NCBI GenBank assembly: GCA_963704075.1 | Contig: CAVPGV010000009.1 | Coordinates: 244,286 to 308,285 of the forward strand | Source of the DNA: an uncultured Actinomycetota bacterium | GTDB taxonomy: Bacteria > Actinomycetota > Actinomycetes > S36-B12 > UBA10799 | DNA length: 64,000 nucleotides | Direction of reading: 5' to 3' | Part shown: piece by piece, positions 30,737 through 44,982 of the stretch | How the letters are laid out: each line of letters starts with the position of its first letter | Numbering within the stretch: position 1 is the first letter of the stretch | Program-made: the position numbers and the translations under genes | Notes under the pieces: generated by a model | Seen by the model: only the letters and a program-made list of their open reading frames with translations | Database searches by the model: none | Told to the model about the DNA's origin: nothing

Positions 30737-32896
30737 CTACAGGTACTGCTCGCCGCGGTCGGCCCGCGCCACCAGCGAGGCGGGGACAGCGAAGCGTTCA
30801 CCGTACTTCTCGGCGAACTCGCGTGCCCTGGCCACGAATTCGGCCAATCCGTAACCGTTGATGTACTGCAGCACACCCCCGGTCCACGGCGGGAACCCGA
30901 TCCCGAAGATGGAGCCGATGTTCGCATCCGGAACGTTGCGCAGGACGCCCTCGTCCAGGCAGCGCACCGAGTCCAGTGCCTCGACGAACAACATCCGCTC
31001 CTGCAACTCGGTGAGGTCGATCGACGCGGGATCGATGTCCGATCCCCAGGTCTCGAGCAGGCCCGGCCACAAACCGACCCGCTTGCCGTCCTCGTAGTCG
31101 TAGAACCCGGCACCGGCCGCGCGGCCGCCGCGGTCGAACTCCACGACCATCTTGTCGATGACCGGGTAGGAGGGATGCTCGGGGAAGTCCCAGCCCTCGG
31201 CAGCTGCGGCCTCCCGGGAGGCCTCCCGGATCCGACGGCCCAGCGTCAGGCTGACCTCGTCGAACAGCGCCAGCGGTCCGGTCGGGTAGCCGGCCTGCAG
31301 TGCTGCTTGCTCGATGCTGGCCGCCGGGATCCCCTCGGCCAGCATCGCCGCGGCCTCGCCCATGAACGTGCCGATGACGCGACTGGTGAAGAACCCGCGG
31401 CTGTCGTTGACGACGATCGGGGTCTTCTTGATCTGCAGGGCGACGTCCACGGCTTGCGCGATCGCCGCATCCGAGGTCTGCTCCCCGACGACGATCTCCA
31501 GCAGCGGCATCTTGTCCACCGGCGAGAAGAAGTGCATACCGATGAAGTCGGCCGGCCGGGTCACCGCGTCAGCGAGCCCGGTGACGGGCAGGGTCGAGGT
31601 GTTGGAGGCCAGCAGCGCGTCCCAGGCCAGGAACGGCTCGATCTCCGCGTAGACCTTCTTCTTCAGCGCCGGGTCCTCGAACACCGCCTCGATCAGCAGG
31701 TCGGCACCCTTGGCGTCGGCTGGGTTGTCGGTGGAGTGATCCGGGCCAGCACCTCATCGGCGGCCTCCTGGGTCATCCTGCCCCGGCTCACGGCCTTGTC
31801 CAGCAGCTTCTCGCTGTAGGCCTTGCCCTTCTGCGCCGACTCCAGCGTGACATCCTTGAGTACGACCTCCATGCCGGAACGCGCCGACACGTAGGCGATG
31901 CCGGCGCCCATCATGCCCGCTCCGAGGACCACGACCTTCTTGGCCGTGTACTTCTCGTGGCCCTTCGGGCCGGCTGCTGCCCTTCATGATCCCCTGCAGG
32001 TCGAAGAAGAACGCCTTGATCATGTTCTTGCTGACCTGGCCGGTGGCGAGACTGACGAAGTACTGCGTCTCGATGCGCAGTGCGTTGTCGACGTCCACCT
32101 GGGAACCCTCGACCGCCGCGGCCATGATGGCCTCCGGGGCAGGCATGGGTGCGCCCTTGATCTGCTTGCGCAGGTTCGCCGGGAACGCCGGCAGCATCGC
32201 GGCGAACTTGGGATTCGACGGGGTGCCACCGGGGATCTTGTAGCCCTTGACGTCCCACGGCTGTACCGCATCCGGGTTGGCCCTGATCCAGGCCTTCGCC
32301 GCGGCGATCAACTCCGCCGGGTCGCTGACGAGTTCGTCGACCAGTCCCACCTCGAGTGCGGCCGCGGGCTTGCGGCGCTGTCCCTGCAGGAGGACCTCCA
32401 TGAGCGCCTTCTGCAGCCCGAACATGCGCACGGTGCGGGCCACGCCGCCGCCGCCGGGCAACAAGCCCAGACTCACCTCGGGCAGCCCGATCTCACTGCC
32501 CTTGACGTCCAGCGCGATCCGGTGGTGACAGGCCAGGGCGATCTCCAGGCCACCGCCGAGCGCAGCGCCGTTGATGGCTGCCACGACGGGCTTGCCCAGC
32601 GTCTCGAGTTGCCGGCTCAGGCCCTTGAACGTCTGCAGTTGCTCGGTCAGCGCCTGCGCGTCCGCGGGCGTGGCCTGGCTCAGCAACGTCAGGTCGCCAC
32701 CGGCGAAGAAGGTCTTCTTCCCCGAGGTGATGACCACACCGGCGATGTCGTCCTTCTCCGCGAGCAGGCGCTGCATCGTTTCGGCGAAACTCGACTGGAA
32801 CGTCGCGTTCATCGTGTTGGCGCCCTGGTCCGGGTCATCCATCGTCAGCGTGACGATCCCGTCGGCGTCCGTGTCCCAAGCGATCATGTTCGTCAT
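30737..32896 (-). pseudogene. fadB: Fatty-acid oxidation multifunctional protein (enoyl-CoA hydratase / 3-hydroxyacyl-CoA dehydrogenase), two frame breaks as assembled
   Basis: Three collinear pieces make up the gene. 31964..32896 is the crotonase domain, starting MTNMIAWDTDADGIVTLTMDDP. About 31733-31963 carries the NAD-binding motif VLGAGMMGAGIAYV. 30737..31732 is the HCDH part (...FEDPALKKKVYAEIEP...HFFSPV...). The junctions are near 31958-31968 and 31728-31738. Confidence 0.85.
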
Positions 32897-36656: not shown

Positions 36657-36752
36657 ATCCCCAGCCTGCCACGTTCCTGGCCCAGGAGGCACCGAATACA
36701 ACCACGACGAACCGGCGCAGAGGGCGCCTGCACAGGCGTAGGCTTGATCGGT

Positions 36753-38144
36753 GTGAGCGACTTCGACGACTTCATCGACGGTTTCTATCCCTACCGCAAG
36801 GAAACGGTCAACTACCGTCGGATCCCCGACGAACCACGCGACCGCTCCGAGATCCTCTCCGAGATCGCCTCCATGGCCAGTCGCGAGGATGCCACCGGCG
36901 ATGAGGGCAAGGTGTCGGGCAGCCTCTACAGCGGCGACCACGAGCACTACGCCTACCTCGGGGAGGTGTTCTCTCAGTTCTCGCATGCGAACGTGCTGCA
37001 GCGCGACATGTACCCCTCCGCAACGAAGTTCGAGGCTGAGATCATCGCTATGGTCCTGGACCTGCTCAACGGCGACGCGAACGCGTGCGGAGTGGTCACC
37101 AGCGGCGGTTCCGAGTCACTGATCACCGCGTTGTACACCTACCGCGAGGCAGCGCGCGAGCGCGGAGTGACCAAGCCCAACGTCGTCATGCCGATCACCG
37201 CGCACGTGGCGTTGGACAAGGGCGCCTACTGGATGGACATCGAGGTCCGCCACGCACCGCTGACCGACAAGTACACCGCCGACGTCGCAGCGATGGCCGA
37301 CCTGATCGACGACCAAACCATCGCGCTGGTCGGTTCGGCCGGTGACTACGGCCACGGCCTGATCGACCCCATCGAGGACATCGCGGCGCTTGCCGCCGAA
37401 CGCGGGATCGGAATGCACGTCGACGGGTGCCTCGGCGGGCTGCTGTGGCCGTGGGCCGAGGAACTCGGCTACGACATCCCGCTGTGGGACTTCCGGGTCC
37501 CCGGCGTCACCTCGATCTCCGCGGACACGCACAAGTACGGCTACTCGATCAAAGGCACGTCCACGTTGCTCTACCGCGACAAGGACCTGCGTCGTCACCA
37601 GTACTTCACGTACCCGGATTGGCCCGGCGGCCTCTACCTGTCCCCCGGGCTGGCCGGTTCCCGCTCGGGCGGCCTGATCGCGGCCACATGGGCGGCGATG
37701 GTCACCACCGGACGTCAGGGGTACCTGGACGCTGCGCGCGGGATCATGGAGACCGCGGCCACCATCCGCGCCGGCATCGACGACATGAACGGGCTGCAGG
37801 TCATCGGCGACCCCAAGTTCCTCATCGCGTTCATGGCTGACCGCGACGACCTCGACATCTACCTGGTCAACGACGCGCTGAAGAAAGCCGGCTGGCGCAT
37901 GAACGCCCTGCAGTTGCCGGCTGCGCTGCACTTCTGCGTCACCCGCCCCAACACCCGGCCCGGTATCGCGCAGGCCTTCCTCGATGACCTGCAGGGTGCT
38001 GTCGACTACGCGCTGGACAACGTCGGAACACCGGCTGCCAGCGGCGCGATGTACGGCTTCGGTCACACCCCGCAGGGCAACCAGACGATCAACATGCTGA
38101 TGTCCGGGGTCCTGGACGCGATGCACGAGGTGGCTCCCGAGTGA
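36753..38144 (+). CDS. PLP-dependent group II decarboxylase-fold enzyme, sphingosine-1-phosphate-lyase-like
   Basis: About 463 codons from GTG 36753; TTG 36744 is also possible. The PLP-lysine context is SISADTHKYGYS. Blocks GGSESLITAL and HVDGCLGG are present, and the overall pattern resembles bacterial SPL homologues. Confidence 0.7.
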   Translation: MSDFDDFIDGFYPYRKETVNYRRIPDEPRDRSEILSEIASMASREDATGDEGKVSGSLYSGDHEHYAYLGEVFSQFSHANVLQRDMYPSATKFEAEIIAMVLDLLNGDANACGVVTSGGSESLITALYTYREAARERGVTKPNVVMPITAHVALDKGAYWMDIEVRHAPLTDKYTADVAAMADLIDDQTIALVGSAGDYGHGLIDPIEDIAALAAERGIGMHVDGCLGGLLWPWAEELGYDIPLWDFRVPGVTSISADTHKYGYSIKGTSTLLYRDKDLRRHQYFTYPDWPGGLYLSPGLAGSRSGGLIAATWAAMVTTGRQGYLDAARGIMETAATIRAGIDDMNGLQVIGDPKFLIAFMADRDDLDIYLVNDALKKAGWRMNALQLPAALHFCVTRPNTRPGIAQAFLDDLQGAVDYALDNVGTPAASGAMYGFGHTPQGNQTINMLMSGVLDAMHEVAPE

Positions 38145-39733
38145 GTTGGATCCTGGCCATCGACCTCGGCAACGGTGGCCCGAAGGTCGCCGCCGTCGAC
38201 GTCGACGGTCGGATTCTCGCCACCGCCTTCCAGCCGGTATCGGTGTACGTGGGCCGCGACGGGACCGCCACCCAGGACGCCATCGAATGGGAAGTGGCCC
38301 TGCGCTCGGCCATCGCCCGGGTGACCGAGGACGTGTCACGCGACGAGTTGTACGCGATCGGCATCACCGGCCAATGGGCCTCCACCGTTCCGGTCGGCCC
38401 GGACGACACACCCGCGGGACCCGTCATGCTGTGGTCCGACACCCGCTCGCGGCACAACGTCCGCAAACTCATCGGCGGGCCGATCTCGTTCGGAGGATAC
38501 GCACCGCAGAAGGTGCTGCCCTGGCTGCGGATCACCGGCGGCGCCCCCAATCCGTCCGGAGCCGATCCCACCGGGCACTCGCTGCTGCTGCAGAACGAAC
38601 TGTCCGAGATCGGTGCGCGCTGCCGCGTGCTGCTGGAGCCGGTGGACTACGTGGCTTTCCTGCTCACGGGCAGGGCTGCGGCGACGCCCGCGTCCATGAC
38701 CGCCTCCTGGTTGACCGACAACCACATCGGGGCCGAGCCGGTGTACGTCGACGACCTGGTGCGGCGTTCCGGGCGCAATCGCGACCTGCTTCCGGAACTG
38801 ATCCCCACTGGATCGATCCAGGGCGCTCTGCTGCCCGAACCAGCCGAACGGCTCGGGCTCAAAGCCGGCGTGCCCGTCGCCTGCGGGATACCCGATGTCC
38901 ACGCCGCTGTGATCGGCAGCGGCGCGGTCAGCGCCTACGACACGCACCTGGCGGTGTCCACCACGGCTTGGCTGTCCGCGCGGGTCCCGTTCAAGCGCAC
39001 CGACATCCTGCACTCGATCGCGACCCTGCCCGGCATGGACCCGACGATGAACCTCGTCGGGAACAACATCGAGACCGGCGGCGCCGCGCTGTCCTGGCTG
39101 CGCGAGCAGATCATCGCCCCTTCCGACGGCTTGCTCGGCGGGGGCAGTGGCATCGGTGCCGACGGCGCCGCCCCGGTCTTCGAGCAGCCGACGTACGACG
39201 CCCTGACCACCTTGGCGGCTACCGCGCCGGCCGGATGCGAAGGTCTGATCTTCACGCCATGGCTGGCCGGGGAGCGCAGCCCGATCGAGGACAAGAACCT
39301 GCGGGCGGCCTTCGTCAACATGTCGTTCCGCACCGACCGGGCGATGATGGTCCGCGCAGTGCTGGAAGGCGTCGCGCTCAACATCGCGTGGCTGTTCGCC
39401 TATTACGAGAAGTACCTCAAACGCCCGGTTCCGAGCCTGCGCATCCTGGGCGGTGGCGCGCAGTCCGACCTGTGGTGTTCGATCATCGCGTCCACACTGG
39501 ACCGGCGCATCGAACAGGTGGAGGACCCGCTCAACGCACAACTGCGGGGGGTGGCCATGTGGGCGCTGGTATGCATGGGCGAACTGACTCTGGAGCAGGC
39601 GGCAGCGCGCGTCCCGGTGGCACGGACGTTCGAGCCGGTGCCCGGGGAGCGCGAGGTCTACCAGCGCCATTTCACTGAGTACAAGAAGCTCTACCCGGCC
39701 CTGAAGGGCTTCTACCGGCGGATGAACGGATAG
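38141..39733 (+). CDS. FGGY-family carbohydrate/polyol kinase
   Basis: 530 aa. The GTG start forms a GTGA overlap with the preceding stop. The N-terminal motif ILAIDLGNGGPKVA and the C-terminal FGGY block (LRILGGGAQSDLWCSIIA) are present. Confidence 0.8.
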   Translation: MSWILAIDLGNGGPKVAAVDVDGRILATAFQPVSVYVGRDGTATQDAIEWEVALRSAIARVTEDVSRDELYAIGITGQWASTVPVGPDDTPAGPVMLWSDTRSRHNVRKLIGGPISFGGYAPQKVLPWLRITGGAPNPSGADPTGHSLLLQNELSEIGARCRVLLEPVDYVAFLLTGRAAATPASMTASWLTDNHIGAEPVYVDDLVRRSGRNRDLLPELIPTGSIQGALLPEPAERLGLKAGVPVACGIPDVHAAVIGSGAVSAYDTHLAVSTTAWLSARVPFKRTDILHSIATLPGMDPTMNLVGNNIETGGAALSWLREQIIAPSDGLLGGGSGIGADGAAPVFEQPTYDALTTLAATAPAGCEGLIFTPWLAGERSPIEDKNLRAAFVNMSFRTDRAMMVRAVLEGVALNIAWLFAYYEKYLKRPVPSLRILGGGAQSDLWCSIIASTLDRRIEQVEDPLNAQLRGVAMWALVCMGELTLEQAAARVPVARTFEPVPGEREVYQRHFTEYKKLYPALKGFYRRMNG

Positions 39734-39736
39734 CCG

Positions 39737-39765
39737 CGACTCTGACTCACCTGGGTCAGAGTCGG
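39737..39765 (+). terminator. Hairpin immediately after the kinase gene (possible intrinsic terminator, no U-tract)
   Basis: CGACTCTGAC (39737-39746) pairs perfectly with GTCAGAGTCG (39756-39765) around a 9-nt loop. The hairpin begins 4 nt after the stop. Confidence 0.4.
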
Positions 39766-39855
39766 GTTGGGCCCGCGACCCACCCGACGAAAACTGAATC
39801 ACCTCGCAATGGGCTGCCTCAGGCGTAACCTGGAAGCGGATAGGAGGTGGGCGAG

Positions 39856-41523
39856 ATGTCCGACCTCGAGTCTCTCGACGTTGCCATTCGCGACCTGAAG
39901 GAGGGGTTGCCCTCCTGGCTGGAGACGCCGCTACCGGCGAAGATCCGGCTGCTGGAATCCGTCCGCCATCGGCTGGGTGAAGAAGCCGAGGGGATGGTGG
40001 CGGCCGCGTGCGACGCACAAGGCACCGCGCCTGACGGGCCGTGGATCGGCCATCAGTGGTCGGCCCTGTGGCCCTTCCTGCAGCATCTGCGTGCATTCGA
40101 GGAGGTGCTGGGGCGGATCGCGGCCGAAAAGCCGCCGCTGCCGGACAGCGCCGTTCACACCCTTGCGAACGGGCAGGTGGCGGTGGACGTGTTTCCCGTC
40201 ACCTGGAGTGAGAAGGTGCTCTACTCGGGGTTCCAGACGCAGGTGTGGATTCAGCCCGGGGTGACAGCCGAACAGGTGCGAGCCGACGCCGCCCGGGCCT
40301 ACCGCGGTGACGGGTTCGAGAGTCCAGGGGTGGCCCTGGCGCTGGGGGCGGGCAACGTCGCGTCCTTGCCGGCCATGGATGTGTTGTATCTGCTGTACGC
40401 CGAGGGCTGCGTGGTCGCGCTGAAGATGAATCCGGTGAACGCCTACCTGCGCCCCTTCTTCGAGCGGATCTTCGCCGACTTCGTCGACCGGGGATGGCTG
40501 CGATTCGTCGATGGTGGCGCGCAGGAGGGCCAATACCTGGCTCACCACCCGAACGTGGACCGCTTGCACATGACCGGGTCGGCGGCGACCTACGACGCCC
40601 TGGTCTGGGGCACCGGCGAGCAGGGGGACCGCAACCGGGCCGGTGGAAGGCCGCTGCTGGACAAACCGTTCACCTGTGAGTTGGGCGGGGTGAGCCCGAT
40701 GATCGTGGTGCCTGGGGACTGGAGCGCCGCGGACGTGCGGCGGCAGGCCGACAAGATCGTCGGGTCCAAGTTGCTCAACTGCGGCCACATCTGTGCTGCT
40801 CCGCAGATCCTGATCCTGCCGCAGGACTGGCCCCAGGCCGACGAACTGCTCGAGCAGGTCCGCGAATTGATGCGCACCCTGCCACCCAATGCGCCCTACT
40901 ACCCGGGCACTGATGAGAACGTAGCGCGGGCTCTCGCCGGTCAGCCGGGTGCCGAACCGCTGCAGGGTGAAGGTCGGCGGGTGCTGGTCACGGGTTTGGA
41001 CCCTGCGGAGGATGCCAGCCTGTTCAGCGACGAGGTGTTCGCCGACGTCCTCGGGGTGGTTCGGCTGCCCGCCGCGACGGTGGCCGATTACCTCGCCGCT
41101 GCGACCGAATTCGCCAACGGGCGCCTGGCCGGCAGCCTCGCCGCCACGATGCTGGTGCACCCGGCGACGATCAAGGCCCATGCGGGCGCGGTGGAGCGCG
41201 CGGTCGCGGATCTCAGGTACGGCGCCGTCGGGATCAACGAGTACGCCGTCATGGTGGACGGGCTCGGGTACGCGACGTGGGGCGGCTACCCGGGGGCGAC
41301 GCCGGCGGAGGTCAGCAGCGGGATCGGCGTGGTGGGCAACGCTTTTCTGCTACCGAAGCCGCAGAAGTCGGTTCTCACGGGCGAATTCCACCCTCTGATG
41401 AAACCCACCACTGCCGCGAGCCATCGGACGATCGCGACCGTCTTCCGTCGGGTGGTGCACTTCGAGGCCACCGACCATGTGACGGATCTGCCGGGGATCT
41501 TCCTGGCAGCCATGCGGGGGTGA
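39856..41523 (+). CDS. Aldehyde dehydrogenase family protein (divergent subfamily)
   Basis: ATG at 39856 lies 8 nt after GGAGG; GTG at 39847 is an alternative. ALDH blocks are FTCELGGVSP and the catalytic Cys context NCGHICAAPQ. Confidence 0.75.
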   Translation: MSDLESLDVAIRDLKEGLPSWLETPLPAKIRLLESVRHRLGEEAEGMVAAACDAQGTAPDGPWIGHQWSALWPFLQHLRAFEEVLGRIAAEKPPLPDSAVHTLANGQVAVDVFPVTWSEKVLYSGFQTQVWIQPGVTAEQVRADAARAYRGDGFESPGVALALGAGNVASLPAMDVLYLLYAEGCVVALKMNPVNAYLRPFFERIFADFVDRGWLRFVDGGAQEGQYLAHHPNVDRLHMTGSAATYDALVWGTGEQGDRNRAGGRPLLDKPFTCELGGVSPMIVVPGDWSAADVRRQADKIVGSKLLNCGHICAAPQILILPQDWPQADELLEQVRELMRTLPPNAPYYPGTDENVARALAGQPGAEPLQGEGRRVLVTGLDPAEDASLFSDEVFADVLGVVRLPAATVADYLAAATEFANGRLAGSLAATMLVHPATIKAHAGAVERAVADLRYGAVGINEYAVMVDGLGYATWGGYPGATPAEVSSGIGVVGNAFLLPKPQKSVLTGEFHPLMKPTTAASHRTIATVFRRVVHFEATDHVTDLPGIFLAAMRG

Positions 41524-41645: not shown

Positions 41646-42051
41646 TCAGAATCCGCGCGTGAGATCAAGCAGGCGGTCGCGCAGCGCAGTCGCCACCGCC
41701 GGCAGCTCACCGGCCGCGAGGTTGAGCAGACCACGATCACGCACTCGCACGGCGCCTGTGGCATTGCCCCGCATGGCGTGGGTCAATGCCACAGCCAGTT
41801 GCGCCATGCCCTTCCACGCGGTGCGCTCCGGTTCCGAGGACACCTTCCAAACCGCTTCCAAGACCTCGTGCGCTTGGAACGGCAGCCCTTCATCCAGCAG
41901 ATGACCGGCATGAGCGACCACCGCCGCCGGGCTGGTGTCGATGTCCTCGGGCAACGGGTGCCACACCCGGGCGCCCGGGCGGCAACGGCCTGCCCAACTC
42001 GTCCCGCGGCCGGGCATTGCGGGGGCGTCCGGACGTGTCGCGGTCACGCAT
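41646..42051 (-). pseudogene. DUF309 domain protein, one frame break as assembled
   Basis: The N-terminal MRDRDTSGRPRNARPRDELGRPLPPGRPGV is in the frame of ORF 41890..42120. The C-terminal HPLPEDID...LLDEGLPFQAHEVLEAVWK...WKGMAQLAVALTHAMRGN is in ORF 41646..42287. The junction is at about 41955-41965. The span is 406 nt, which is 3n+1. Confidence 0.7.
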
Positions 42052-44089: not shown

Positions 44090-44982
44090 TCAGCCGGGAT
44101 CGCGGACGTCGATGTGCACGGTGCGTCCCACCGCGGGCACGCTGCGGGTGTCGGTCACGTACGACACGGGCTGCCCGGCCACGGTGCCCGACACCAGGAA
44201 TCGTCCGTCGTCGAAGGTCCGGCCGGTGACGCGCAGTTCCCACCTGCCCCCTCGCCTCTGCTGCAAACGCTCCGGCGGATATGCGACGTCGTCGAGGACC
44301 GAGAGGCCGACCAGCCGGGCCACGTAGTCGTCGACGGGCGCGTTCCACAACTCGTCGGCTGTGCCGACCTGGACCAGTTTTCCCTGCTTCAACACGGCCA
44401 CCCGGTCGGCCATCGTGAACGCCTCATGCCGGTCGTGCGTCACCGCCAGGACGGTCATCTCGCGATCGCGCAGAAGCCGTTGGACGTCCAGTACGAGTTC
44501 CGCCTTCAGCACCGCGTCCAGCGCGCCGAACGGCTCGTCGAGCAGCACCACCGCCGGCGCTGGGGCCATCGCCCGGGCCAGGGCGACACGTTGTGCCTGG
44601 CCACCACTGAGCGTGTCCACCGCCCTGTCCTGGAAGCCGGCCAGGCCGACCAGATCCAGCGTCTCGTCGACCCGACGGGCATCGGCGGGCCGTCACTCCG
44701 AAGCCCGACGTTCTCCGCGACGTTGAGGTGCGGGAAGAGCAGGTCGTCCTGGAACATCATTCCGATCGCCCGGCGGTGTGTGGGGACACCCTCCAAGGGG
44801 CGGCCCGCCACCTCGATGCGACCGGTGTAGTCGACCAGCCCCGCCACCGCCCGCAGGAGCGTGGACTTGCCACCGCCACTGGGCCCCAGGATGCACACGA
44901 TCTCGCCCTGCCCCACCTCCAGGTCGACGCAGTACAGGACCGGCTGGTCGTAGGACACCGAAACGTTCTGAAGGTGCAGCAT
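44090..44982 (-). pseudogene. ABC transporter ATP-binding protein (ThiQ/FbpC-like), one frame break as assembled
   Basis: The N-terminal part has Walker A (GPSGGGKST) in the frame of ORF 44506..46068. The C-terminal part has the signature LSGGQAQRV and Walker B (VVLLDEP) in ORF 44090..44620. The junction is at about 44688-44700. The span is 893 nt, which is 3n+2. Confidence 0.8.

Follow-up and report, generated by a model that had tools for sequence, protein, structure and literature searches.

A conserved gene pair for an S1P-lyase-like enzyme and an FGGY-family kinase points to a phosphorylate-then-cleave route for an amino alcohol

The window, i.e., the whole 64 kb stretch of DNA from an uncultured Actinomycetota bacterium that was analysed here, contains two overlapping genes for a PLP enzyme of the sphingosine-1-phosphate (S1P) lyase type (SPL) and a kinase of the FGGY family, followed in the same direction by a probable gene of the aldehyde dehydrogenase (ALDH) superfamily. 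The locus comprises the following features:

36666..36752, no strand: intergenic region of 87 nt between a DUF2510 gene and the SPL gene, presumed promoter region
36753..38144, plus strand: gene for the SPL-type PLP enzyme, 463 aa, with PF00282 and matches to solved S1P lyases
38141..38144, plus strand: GTGA in which the end of the SPL gene and the beginning of the FGGY gene overlap, from direct reading of the sequence
38141..39733, plus strand: gene for the FGGY-family kinase, 530 aa, with FGGY_N and FGGY_C
39738..39763, plus strand: hairpin with a perfect 11-bp stem just 3′ of the FGGY stop, from folding
39874..41523, plus strand: gene for a divergent, probable ALDH-superfamily protein, 549 aa, with its own GGAGG-ATG and PF00171

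All three open reading frames were found where the original prediction had placed them, and the co-directional trio that it described is real as an arrangement, a functional trio being a separate question. The GTGA proposed to couple the lyase and kinase genes was read directly in the sequence, the TGA stop of the former (38142-38144) overlapping the GTG start of the latter (38141-38143). On the other side of the intergenic region, the DUF2510 membrane-protein gene (Pfam match) runs divergently from the SPL gene on the minus strand, with its start at 36665; the region in between is presumed to act as the promoter, and a consensus scan and an Rfam search returned neither a sigma-70-like consensus nor an Rfam match within it. 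The same approaches, applied to the whole unit, detected no sigma-70-like promoter, no T-tract terminator inside it and no Rfam family. The 76 nt around the hairpin (39725-39800) fold at −31.7 kcal/mol (z = −3.4 versus shuffles), and the hairpin itself, having no U tract, was not called by the consensus terminator scan; it likely marks the end of a two-gene transcription unit, with a putative terminator function. Beyond it, again as predicted, the ALDH gene has a GGAGG (39844-39848) ahead of its ATG (39874) and starts 140 nt downstream of the pair.

The SPL reading frame at 36753-38144 encodes a protein that contains SISADTHKYGYSIKG, with K261 as the PLP lysine and without an N-terminal membrane segment, and the start of the gene is backed by a full-length alignment with 21 homologs. 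Its description as an S1P-lyase-like PLP enzyme, from a family with the group II PLP decarboxylase fold, was borne out by a PF00282 domain (70 bits, cut-off 27) and by full-length homology to the solved S1P lyases, namely StSPL of Symbiobacterium thermophilum (3mad; E = 1.2e-131, 46% identity), S1PL2021 of Burkholderia pseudomallei (5k1r; E = 4.9e-131, 48% identity) and human SPL (8ayf; E = 1.9e-104). Using the residue roles described for StSPL (PMC10243590), an alignment of 22 homologs (A1) was inspected, in which StSPL K311, K317, Y105, N126, S353, D274 and H201 correspond to K261, K267, Y59, N80, S303, D224 and H151 of the window protein, all invariant, as are H260 and G119/S120 (StSPL H310 and G168/T169) of the PLP-binding/Schiff-base set. 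The anchor for the substrate phosphate keeps Y59, N80 and K267, its sole change being StSPL H129 to Q83. This substitution is common to S1PL2021 (NALQRD; the window protein has NxLQRD), and S1PL2021 is a proven S1P lyase with Gln at the H129 position (PMC5234717); the idea that the change marks a lost lyase function was ruled out, since the active Burkholderia enzyme carries the same Gln. The bacterial enzymes StSPL and S1PL2021/2025, at 46-48% identity, have the same fold as the window protein, and apart from H129 in StSPL the same PLP and phosphate-site residues. The enzyme is predicted to split S1P, or a phospho-amino-diol related to it, by a retro-aldol reaction, and the retention of the substrate-phosphate site argues that the kinase acts first. 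Four residues, Y199, L294, L296 and M450, which correspond to the channel residues altered in a drug-design surrogate of StSPL, are hydrophobic and invariant here, and fit a lipid tail as well.

The kinase had also been placed in the right family: both FGGY_N and FGGY_C are matched in Pfam at ~82 bits each, and the two-domain fold and the catalytic Asp are present. This residue, D252, aligns with the Asp of the GDN motif of XylB, and together with D8 and K15 it is invariant in the kinase alignment (A3). With XylB, GlpK and GntK the protein shares the fold, the Asp and the phosphate-binding motifs; its motifs read DLGNGGPK, GQWAST and PDVH instead of DxGTS, GQMHG and GDN, the second and third being substitutions on the substrate side, and its genomic partners are amine-handling PLP enzymes rather than sugar isomerases. 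None of the NCBIfam kinase equivalogs (XylB, GntK, AraB, GlpK, LsrK, FucK) is matched at its curated cut-off, the top score being 186 bits against a cut-off of 380 for XylB (TIGR01312), with all others falling further short. The best solved relative was found at E = 1.7e-30. A structural model (pTM 0.82), which has low confidence at residues 265-314, 326-339 and 372-384 and confirms the fold only, gave Foldseek TM values of 0.6-0.73 to gluconate, xylulose and glycerol kinases, with no solved member exceeding 24% identity. Judged by its sequence, the kinase is a member of a distinct FGGY clade.

To follow the association of the two genes, 80 species-level genomes that encode a close relative of SPL were compared; the loci were the best-scoring 80 per scan and not a random sample. 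An FGGY ortholog (37-83% identity) lies directly downstream of the SPL gene in 78 of the 78 assessable loci among these best-scoring 80, the remaining two ending less than 210 nt after SPL. The genomes span the Actinomycetota (Nanopelagicales, Thermoleophilia, Microthrixaceae) and the Dormibacterota, and the flanks of the pair are unrelated. When metagenome loci were scanned starting from the kinase, SPL was found in 48 of the 60 assessable best-scoring loci, in both gene orders; the other 12 were without SPL, which shows that kinases of this clade also occur in its absence. Among 86 other loci in which the lyase gene precedes the kinase gene, the median distance from the SPL stop to the first kinase residue in the alignment is 14 nt. 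The distance matrices of the two proteins are correlated at r = 0.94 (Mantel 0/999), and the kinase clades track the SPL type. The StSPL clade likewise has the pair, in a locus whose lyase is 86% identical to StSPL (L086) and in a Symbiobacterium assembly (L170; 84%, with a 3-nt spacer), i.e., the close relatives of StSPL carry the same FGGY neighbour. The SPL–kinase association that had been proposed is thereby upheld: the two genes form a tightly co-conserved, co-inherited unit. As a negative control, SPL-like genes of proteobacterial plasmids (33-40% identity) were inspected, and an FGGY kinase was linked to none of the three. The Burkholderia genes BPSS2021-2025 span ~5 kb (PMC5388805), so that an FGGY gene would hardly fit in between the lyase genes. 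Read-through from SPL into FGGY was seen only in L046, as a clean 1031-aa ORF, and in L061, with a frameshift-like junction; both are MAGs of one project in which an assembly error is possible, and gene fusion was set aside as Rosetta-stone evidence.

Other genes recur beside the pair elsewhere. The commonest third partner among the 121 best-scoring pair loci is an MFS transporter, which flanks 29 of them in four gene orders and has no solved relatives other than FLVCR1/2 (E = 5e-12), which carry choline and ethanolamine; no solved lipid transporter reached E = 0.01 in the structure search. A GabD2-type ALDH accompanies nine of the same 121 best-scoring loci, TetR regulators and an SDR are linked to pairs as well, and in one locus (L155) ALDH, MFS, SPL and FGGY all run in one direction. 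Within the 64 kb of the window there is no FLVCR-like MFS, GabD2-type ALDH or SDR, and among the genes linked to the pair none for further use of phosphoethanolamine was found. Sister kinases of the clade pair with class-III aminotransferases and RuBisCO-like proteins or class II aldolases, and these sister operons appear to follow the same logic, on a ketose-1-phosphate. More distant SPL-like genes occur in biosynthetic contexts, e.g., with serC and a PKS in B. gladioli, and are not linked to an FGGY kinase. Full-text literature searches returned no paper linking SPL with an FGGY kinase, a xylulokinase, a carbohydrate kinase or a bacterial sphingosine kinase, and nothing relevant on a RuBisCO-like protein with FGGY and an aminotransferase, in agreement with the earlier statement that no characterised bacterial pathway combining SPL and FGGY was known.

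With moderate confidence, we favor a two-gene phosphorylate-then-cleave cassette that acts on a small soluble amino-polyol or amino alcohol and leaves the window ALDH outside. The FGGY kinase would transfer a phosphate from ATP to a 2-amino-1,3-diol compound, at the primary hydroxyl adjacent to the carbon that bears the amino group, and the SPL-type enzyme would then cleave the C2–C3 bond of the resulting 1-phospho-2-amino-3-hydroxy compound by a retro-aldol reaction, yielding phosphoethanolamine and an aldehyde. In many genomes the FLVCR-like MFS may import the substrate, and in some a GabD2-type ALDH or an SDR may handle the aldehyde. We infer the reaction order, the catabolic direction and the substrate class, with order and substrate resting on context: many pairs have the FLVCR-like transporter as a neighbour, the sister operons combine aminotransferases with an aldolase or with RuBisCO-like enzymes, and the kinase reaches no sugar-kinase equivalog cut-off, all of which makes the substrate lean towards a soluble amino-polyol and most likely away from a long-chain sphingoid base. 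The kinase–lyase logic of the original prediction is supported. Its preference for a soluble amino-polyol over a sphingoid base is supported in that the context leans that way; on the other side, the characterised relatives cleave S1P and the channel fits a lipid tail as well.

The sphingoid base is the substrate of an alternative that we consider unlikely, in which the pair serves sphingoid-base catabolism or detoxification, the FGGY protein acting as a non-canonical long-chain-base kinase that forms sphingosine- or sphinganine-1-phosphate, and SPL releasing phosphoethanolamine and a fatty aldehyde for an ALDH and beta-oxidation. Besides the invariant hydrophobic channel, it can draw on the cleavage of S1P in vitro by StSPL and BpS1PL2021/2025 (PMC5234717; PMC3148216), yet the Burkholderia enzyme, whose true substrate its authors call conjecture, turns S1P over poorly (kcat 0.015 per s; PMC5234717), and the Burkholderia enzymes reach a kcat/KM of no more than ~3e2 per M per s with S1P. 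Class-3-like motifs were seen by eye in the window ALDH, and M20 amidohydrolases, which could be deacylases, flank two pair loci (L086 and L089). In the clade of the window the pair also lies ~2.6 kb from fadA–fadB, but these genes sit on the other strand and the synteny is confined to relatives with at least 88% identity, and their proximity was dismissed as evidence for a lipid substrate because the synteny is clade-specific. To our knowledge no FGGY kinase uses a lipid; the transporter linked to the pair resembles carriers of choline and ethanolamine, and the sister operons encode ketose-phosphate enzymes, not lipid enzymes. Most improbable, in our estimate, is a reversal of direction or order, with SPL condensing phosphoethanolamine and an aldehyde, or with the lyase acting first on an unphosphorylated amino-diol and the kinase then phosphorylating a sugar-like product. 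Aldol reactions are reversible in principle, BpS1PL2021 shows ~8% activity on unphosphorylated sphingosine, and the distant homologs in biosynthetic contexts would suit a synthetic role; against this, those homologs lack the linked FGGY kinase, the substrate-phosphate site is conserved, and the importer-type MFS, the TetR regulators, the ALDH and the SDR fit catabolism.

The third gene raises a further alternative, namely that in this lineage the three genes do work together as one local pathway, in which the divergent ALDH is a non-orthologous replacement for the GabD2-type enzyme found beside other pairs. The ALDH is intact and co-directional with the pair, and motifs seen by eye (ELGGVSP, NCGHICAAP) look catalytic; its PF00171 match is above cut-off (66 bits, E 2.4e-18) and covers only residues 153-347 of 549, and its best solved relative was found at E = 1e-7. 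The exact sequence had no match in the protein collection. A strong hairpin and a separate ribosome-binding site split the gene from the pair, however, and an ALDH of the window type stands beside only two of the 121 best-scoring pair loci, i.e., the window itself and a relative with 92% SPL identity (L006), in which it is a remnant of the C-terminal 281 residues (269-549). In the relatives whose SPL is 88-90% identical, its place is taken by other genes. The pre-set check of co-conservation thus failed for the trio; oxidation of the aldehyde by an ALDH does not hold as a conserved trio here and may hold elsewhere, through the GabD2-type enzyme. A local three-gene pathway is very unlikely, and in the favored two-gene reading the window ALDH would be a lineage-specific neighbour with its own transcription unit, and not a conserved pathway member.

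The scheme has parallels in known systems. In the eukaryotic sphingoid-base route, sphingosine kinase, the lyase SGPL1/Dpl1p and ALDH3A2 follow the same order of phosphorylation, PLP-dependent retro-aldol cleavage and aldehyde oxidation, and the lyases are homologous; the window kinase, in contrast, is FGGY and not DAG-kinase-like, the lyase is soluble and has no membrane anchor, conservation of the pair does not extend to the ALDH, the transporter is FLVCR-like and the substrate is probably not a lipid. In the routes of the ethanolamine-phosphate phospho-lyase and of the mycobacterial 1-amino-2-propanol kinase, phospho-lyase and aldehyde dehydrogenase, a kinase first phosphorylates an amino alcohol, which a PLP enzyme then breaks down to an aldehyde that is oxidised by an ALDH. 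These routes share the scheme of phosphorylation followed by PLP-dependent breakdown, but they use an APH-like kinase and a phospho-lyase of the class-III aminotransferase fold and eliminate phosphate and ammonia, whereas the step proposed for the pair is a C–C cleavage. Work on StSPL and the Burkholderia S1PLs treated them singly, as S1P lyases or virulence factors, and a partner kinase was not found in the literature searched.

The conserved pairing suggests that an amino alcohol is broken down by a phosphorylate-then-cleave route that has yet to be described. Bacterial S1P lyase homologs have been solved and assayed, and the question of their native substrate gains a handle from a kinase gene that is almost always adjacent. 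The annotations that the two proteins currently carry, “xylulokinase” for the one and “aminotransferase class V-fold enzyme” or “glutamate/tyrosine decarboxylase-like” for the other, are corrected accordingly. Tentatively, and with a chance that we put a little below even, we propose that the FGGY clade consists of unrecognised amino-alcohol/amino-polyol kinases that, with an FLVCR-like importer, feed the bacterial “S1P lyases” their true substrate; the many SPL homologs found in Actinomycetota, Dormibacterota, Chloroflexota and Symbiobacteriaceae, those of the StSPL lineage among them, would then serve a widespread catabolism of soluble amino-polyols and not sphingolipid metabolism, and the operons in which the kinase is joined by a class-III aminotransferase and either a class II aldolase or a RuBisCO-like protein would represent parallel branches of this metabolism. 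Should the kinase indeed prove active with an amino alcohol, the range of the FGGY family would no longer be limited to sugars and polyols, and abundant uncultured lineages of freshwater and soil (Nanopelagicales, Thermoleophilia, Dormibacterota) would have a catabolic route relevant to both nitrogen and phosphorus.

The window (~68% G+C) belongs to the chromosomal core of an uncultured actinomycete, and in it genes for cytochrome c maturation and for the synthesis of haem and menaquinone surround a sphingosine-1-phosphate (S1P) lyase-like gene (SPL), an FGGY kinase gene and an aldehyde dehydrogenase-like gene (ALDH). Proteins nearly identical to those of the window are assigned in public records to Candidatus Nanopelagicales or Actinomycetota MAGs. 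Read from the sequence, the three frames and the signals between them lie where the original prediction had placed them:

36753-38144, plus strand: SPL gene, 463 aa, containing SADTHKYGY
38141-39733, plus strand: FGGY kinase gene, 530 aa, GTG start
38141-38144, plus strand: overlap of the FGGY GTG start with the SPL TGA stop
39738-39763, plus strand: hairpin with an 11-bp perfect stem, 3′ of the FGGY gene
39874-41523, plus strand: ALDH gene, 549 aa, GGAGG ahead of its start

The 76 nt around the hairpin (39725-39800) fold at -31.7 kcal/mol (z = -3.4), but the hairpin has no T tract and is therefore not called a terminator by a consensus scan. The SPL and FGGY genes are both full length, unlike the nearby frames of fadB (31700-31950), a DUF309 gene (41953-41981) and an ABC-transporter ATPase (44690-44700), which are broken when judged against the intact orthologs of locus L001 and represent either assembly indels or pseudogenes.

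The SPL alignment was scanned against one genome per species and found at least 596 relatives, of which the best 80 loci were examined, all of them MAGs from Actinomycetota (Nanopelagicales, Thermoleophilia, Microthrixaceae and others) and Dormibacterota. Immediately 3′ of SPL, 78 of these best 80 loci carry an FGGY ortholog (37-83% identity by tblastn), and the other two end 69 and 209 nt past SPL. Clustering of the neighbouring ORFs left SPL and FGGY alone as common across these loci, with flanks that vary (prfB-ftsEX-M23-smpB in one group, fadAB and DUF2510 solely in the window's own clade). The predicted trio thus holds clearly for SPL with FGGY, but not for the ALDH. The latter, by its sequence a very divergent ALDH-like protein (PF00171 match limited to residues 153-347, best solved relative at E = 1e-7), was found elsewhere in the best 80 loci only in L006 (92% SPL identity), where residues 269-549 are left (L006:13475-14317, without the N-terminal half), which suggests gene decay in the nearest relative sampled. 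Relatives at 88-90% SPL identity have other genes in place of the ALDH.

The pairing extends to homologs of StSPL, the solved S1P lyase of Symbiobacterium thermophilum: H-type proteins (motif NPLHPD, 66-86% identity to StSPL) also adjoin an FGGY gene, in one case in reversed order, and in a Symbiobacterium assembly the kinase begins 3 nt after an SPL 84% identical to StSPL. The kinases beside StSPL-type SPL share 39-40% full-length identity and the QW and PDxH motifs with the window kinase. A kinase-first search, likewise restricted to the best-scoring 80 loci (mostly MAGs), found SPL adjoining the kinase in 48 of 60 assessable metagenome loci, 38 with FGGY then SPL and 10 with SPL then FGGY. 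Distance matrices for SPL and for FGGY agree closely (r = 0.94, 115 loci; Mantel 0/999), and in a neighbour-joining tree (no support values) the kinases cluster by the accompanying SPL type. As a negative control, none of three inspected proteobacterial-plasmid SPL-like genes (35-40% identity; 14 such matches span 33-40%) was linked to an FGGY kinase. The gene for a distant SPL-like PLP enzyme (L173:4744-10087, Burkholderia gladioli BSR3 plasmid bgla_1p, 40% identity) sits between serC and a polyketide synthase in a biosynthetic-looking setting without an FGGY kinase, and plasmid homologs from Rhodobacteraceae and Rhizobium have M20 hydrolases and ABC transporters for amino acids as neighbours. 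SPL and FGGY share one continuous ORF in two Thermoleophilia MAGs (L046:7010-10105, 1031 aa, SPL C-terminus intact, linker of ~35 residues; L061:9863-13003, junction frameshift-like in appearance), which is a true fusion or else an artefact of assembly.

Sequence comparison places window SPL firmly in the S1P lyase family (E = 1e-131 against both StSPL and S1PL2021, the solved Burkholderia pseudomallei enzyme, and 1e-104 against human SPL; 46% and 48% identity to the first two). When the StSPL residue list (PMC10243590) was transferred through a homology alignment, the PLP lysine K311 and K317, Y105, N126, S353, D274 and H201 fell on K261, K267, Y59, N80, S303, D224 and H151, respectively, all unchanged across 22 homologs. 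The sole phosphate-site difference from StSPL, H129 to Q83 in the motif NVLQRDMYPS, is not disabling, because S1PL2021, which is catalytically active on S1P (PMC5234717), has the same Gln-Arg motif (NALQRDLCPS). An N-terminal membrane segment is absent from the protein. The window kinase has both FGGY domains but falls under the curated cut-off of every named kinase (nearest XylB, 186 bits versus 380), and shares no more than 24% identity with any solved FGGY kinase; its AlphaFold model (pLDDT 75, pTM 0.82) aligns structurally with gluconate, xylulose and glycerol kinases at TM 0.6-0.73. The clade motifs GQW(A/G)S and PD(L/V/I)H replace GQMHG and GDN of xylulokinases. A glycine-rich insertion of low model confidence (APSDGLLGGGSGIGADGAAP..., 39116-39196, kinase residues ~326-352) is shared with some orthologs and missing from L010, L036 and L054.

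Partners were counted over 121 non-redundant pair loci. An FLVCR-like MFS transporter lies near the pair in 29, a GabD2-type ALDH (NCBIfam PRK09407, 774 bits) in nine, an associated SDR in four and the window-type ALDH in two. Among solved structures the transporter is related only to FLVCR2 (E = 5e-12) and FLVCR1 (5e-4), which carry choline and ethanolamine. It directly adjoins the pair in four distinct gene orders, and in L155 ALDH, MFS, SPL and FGGY are all co-directional. At L088:9006-12459, in a 2.4-Mb contig, genes for a cholesterol-oxidase-like GMC oxidoreductase and a GabD2-type ALDH run convergently towards an H-type pair. Two StSPL-type loci (L086:9241-12439, L089:7814-13488) have a cluster of several M20-family amidohydrolase genes next to the pair; these enzymes could remove the N-acyl group from a precursor of the kinase substrate.

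The best explanation, which we hold to be reasonably probable, is that cells would take up a compound, probably a small amino-polyol, which the FGGY kinase would phosphorylate and SPL would then split by retro-aldol cleavage into phosphoethanolamine and an aldehyde. The conserved phosphate site of SPL argues for kinase first and then lyase. A sphingoid base as the substrate seems unlikely but has real evidence behind it: S1P is cleaved by StSPL and the Burkholderia enzymes, and the four positions of the channel that were changed in the StSPL surrogate 5EUD are occupied here by invariant hydrophobic residues. Against it, the Burkholderia enzymes are slow on S1P (kcat 0.015 per s), and the authors of that work call the identity of the true substrate conjecture (PMC5234717). 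A lyase-first order, a synthetic direction of the pair and a local role for the window ALDH are each less likely. All partner contexts (MFS, ALDH, aminotransferase, aldolase, RuBisCO-like) fit a 1-phospho-2-amino-polyol as the kinase product, which could be cleaved directly by SPL or, we infer, could be transaminated to a ketose-1-phosphate for an aldolase or RuBisCO-like enzyme.

Among SPL-less kinase loci, 10 of 12 assessable ones have a class-III GSA-aminomutase-like PLP enzyme and/or a RuBisCO-like protein, and upstream of several of these lie a TetR regulator and a member of the same MFS family. An SPL-less clade of the same kinase type comprises L130:15-7658 and L132, L133, L135, L139, L147, L129, L115 and L138; L130, L135 and L139 carry an operon of MFS, TetR, FGGY, class-III PLP enzyme, RuBisCO-like protein and a 370-aa uncharacterised protein, and the others parts of this set, some with a saccharopine-dehydrogenase-like gene upstream instead. 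The L130-type operon possibly encodes an undescribed route for amino-polyols that runs in parallel. On plasmids of the cultured bacteria Burkholderia ambifaria (L175:7039-14739, CF3 plas1, which also carries an SDR, ALDH, TetR regulator and MFS) and Butyrivibrio fibrisolvens (L176:6995-11592, pNP243), the gene of a sister kinase type (TQxEG, DN) is followed by those for a class II aldolase and a class-III aminotransferase; in L026, L028, L031 and L051 this kinase type is found 3-4 kb away from the SPL-FGGY pair.

In its logic the pair is like sphingoid-base degradation in eukaryotes and like the routes that combine an amino-alcohol kinase with a phospho-lyase; it differs in kinase family, in transporter and probably in substrate. 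No report of the SPL-FGGY pairing was found in the literature searched, and public annotation is generic ("xylulokinase" for the kinase, "aminotransferase class V-fold" for SPL). The pairing makes the native substrate of bacterial S1P-lyase homologs a directly testable question.
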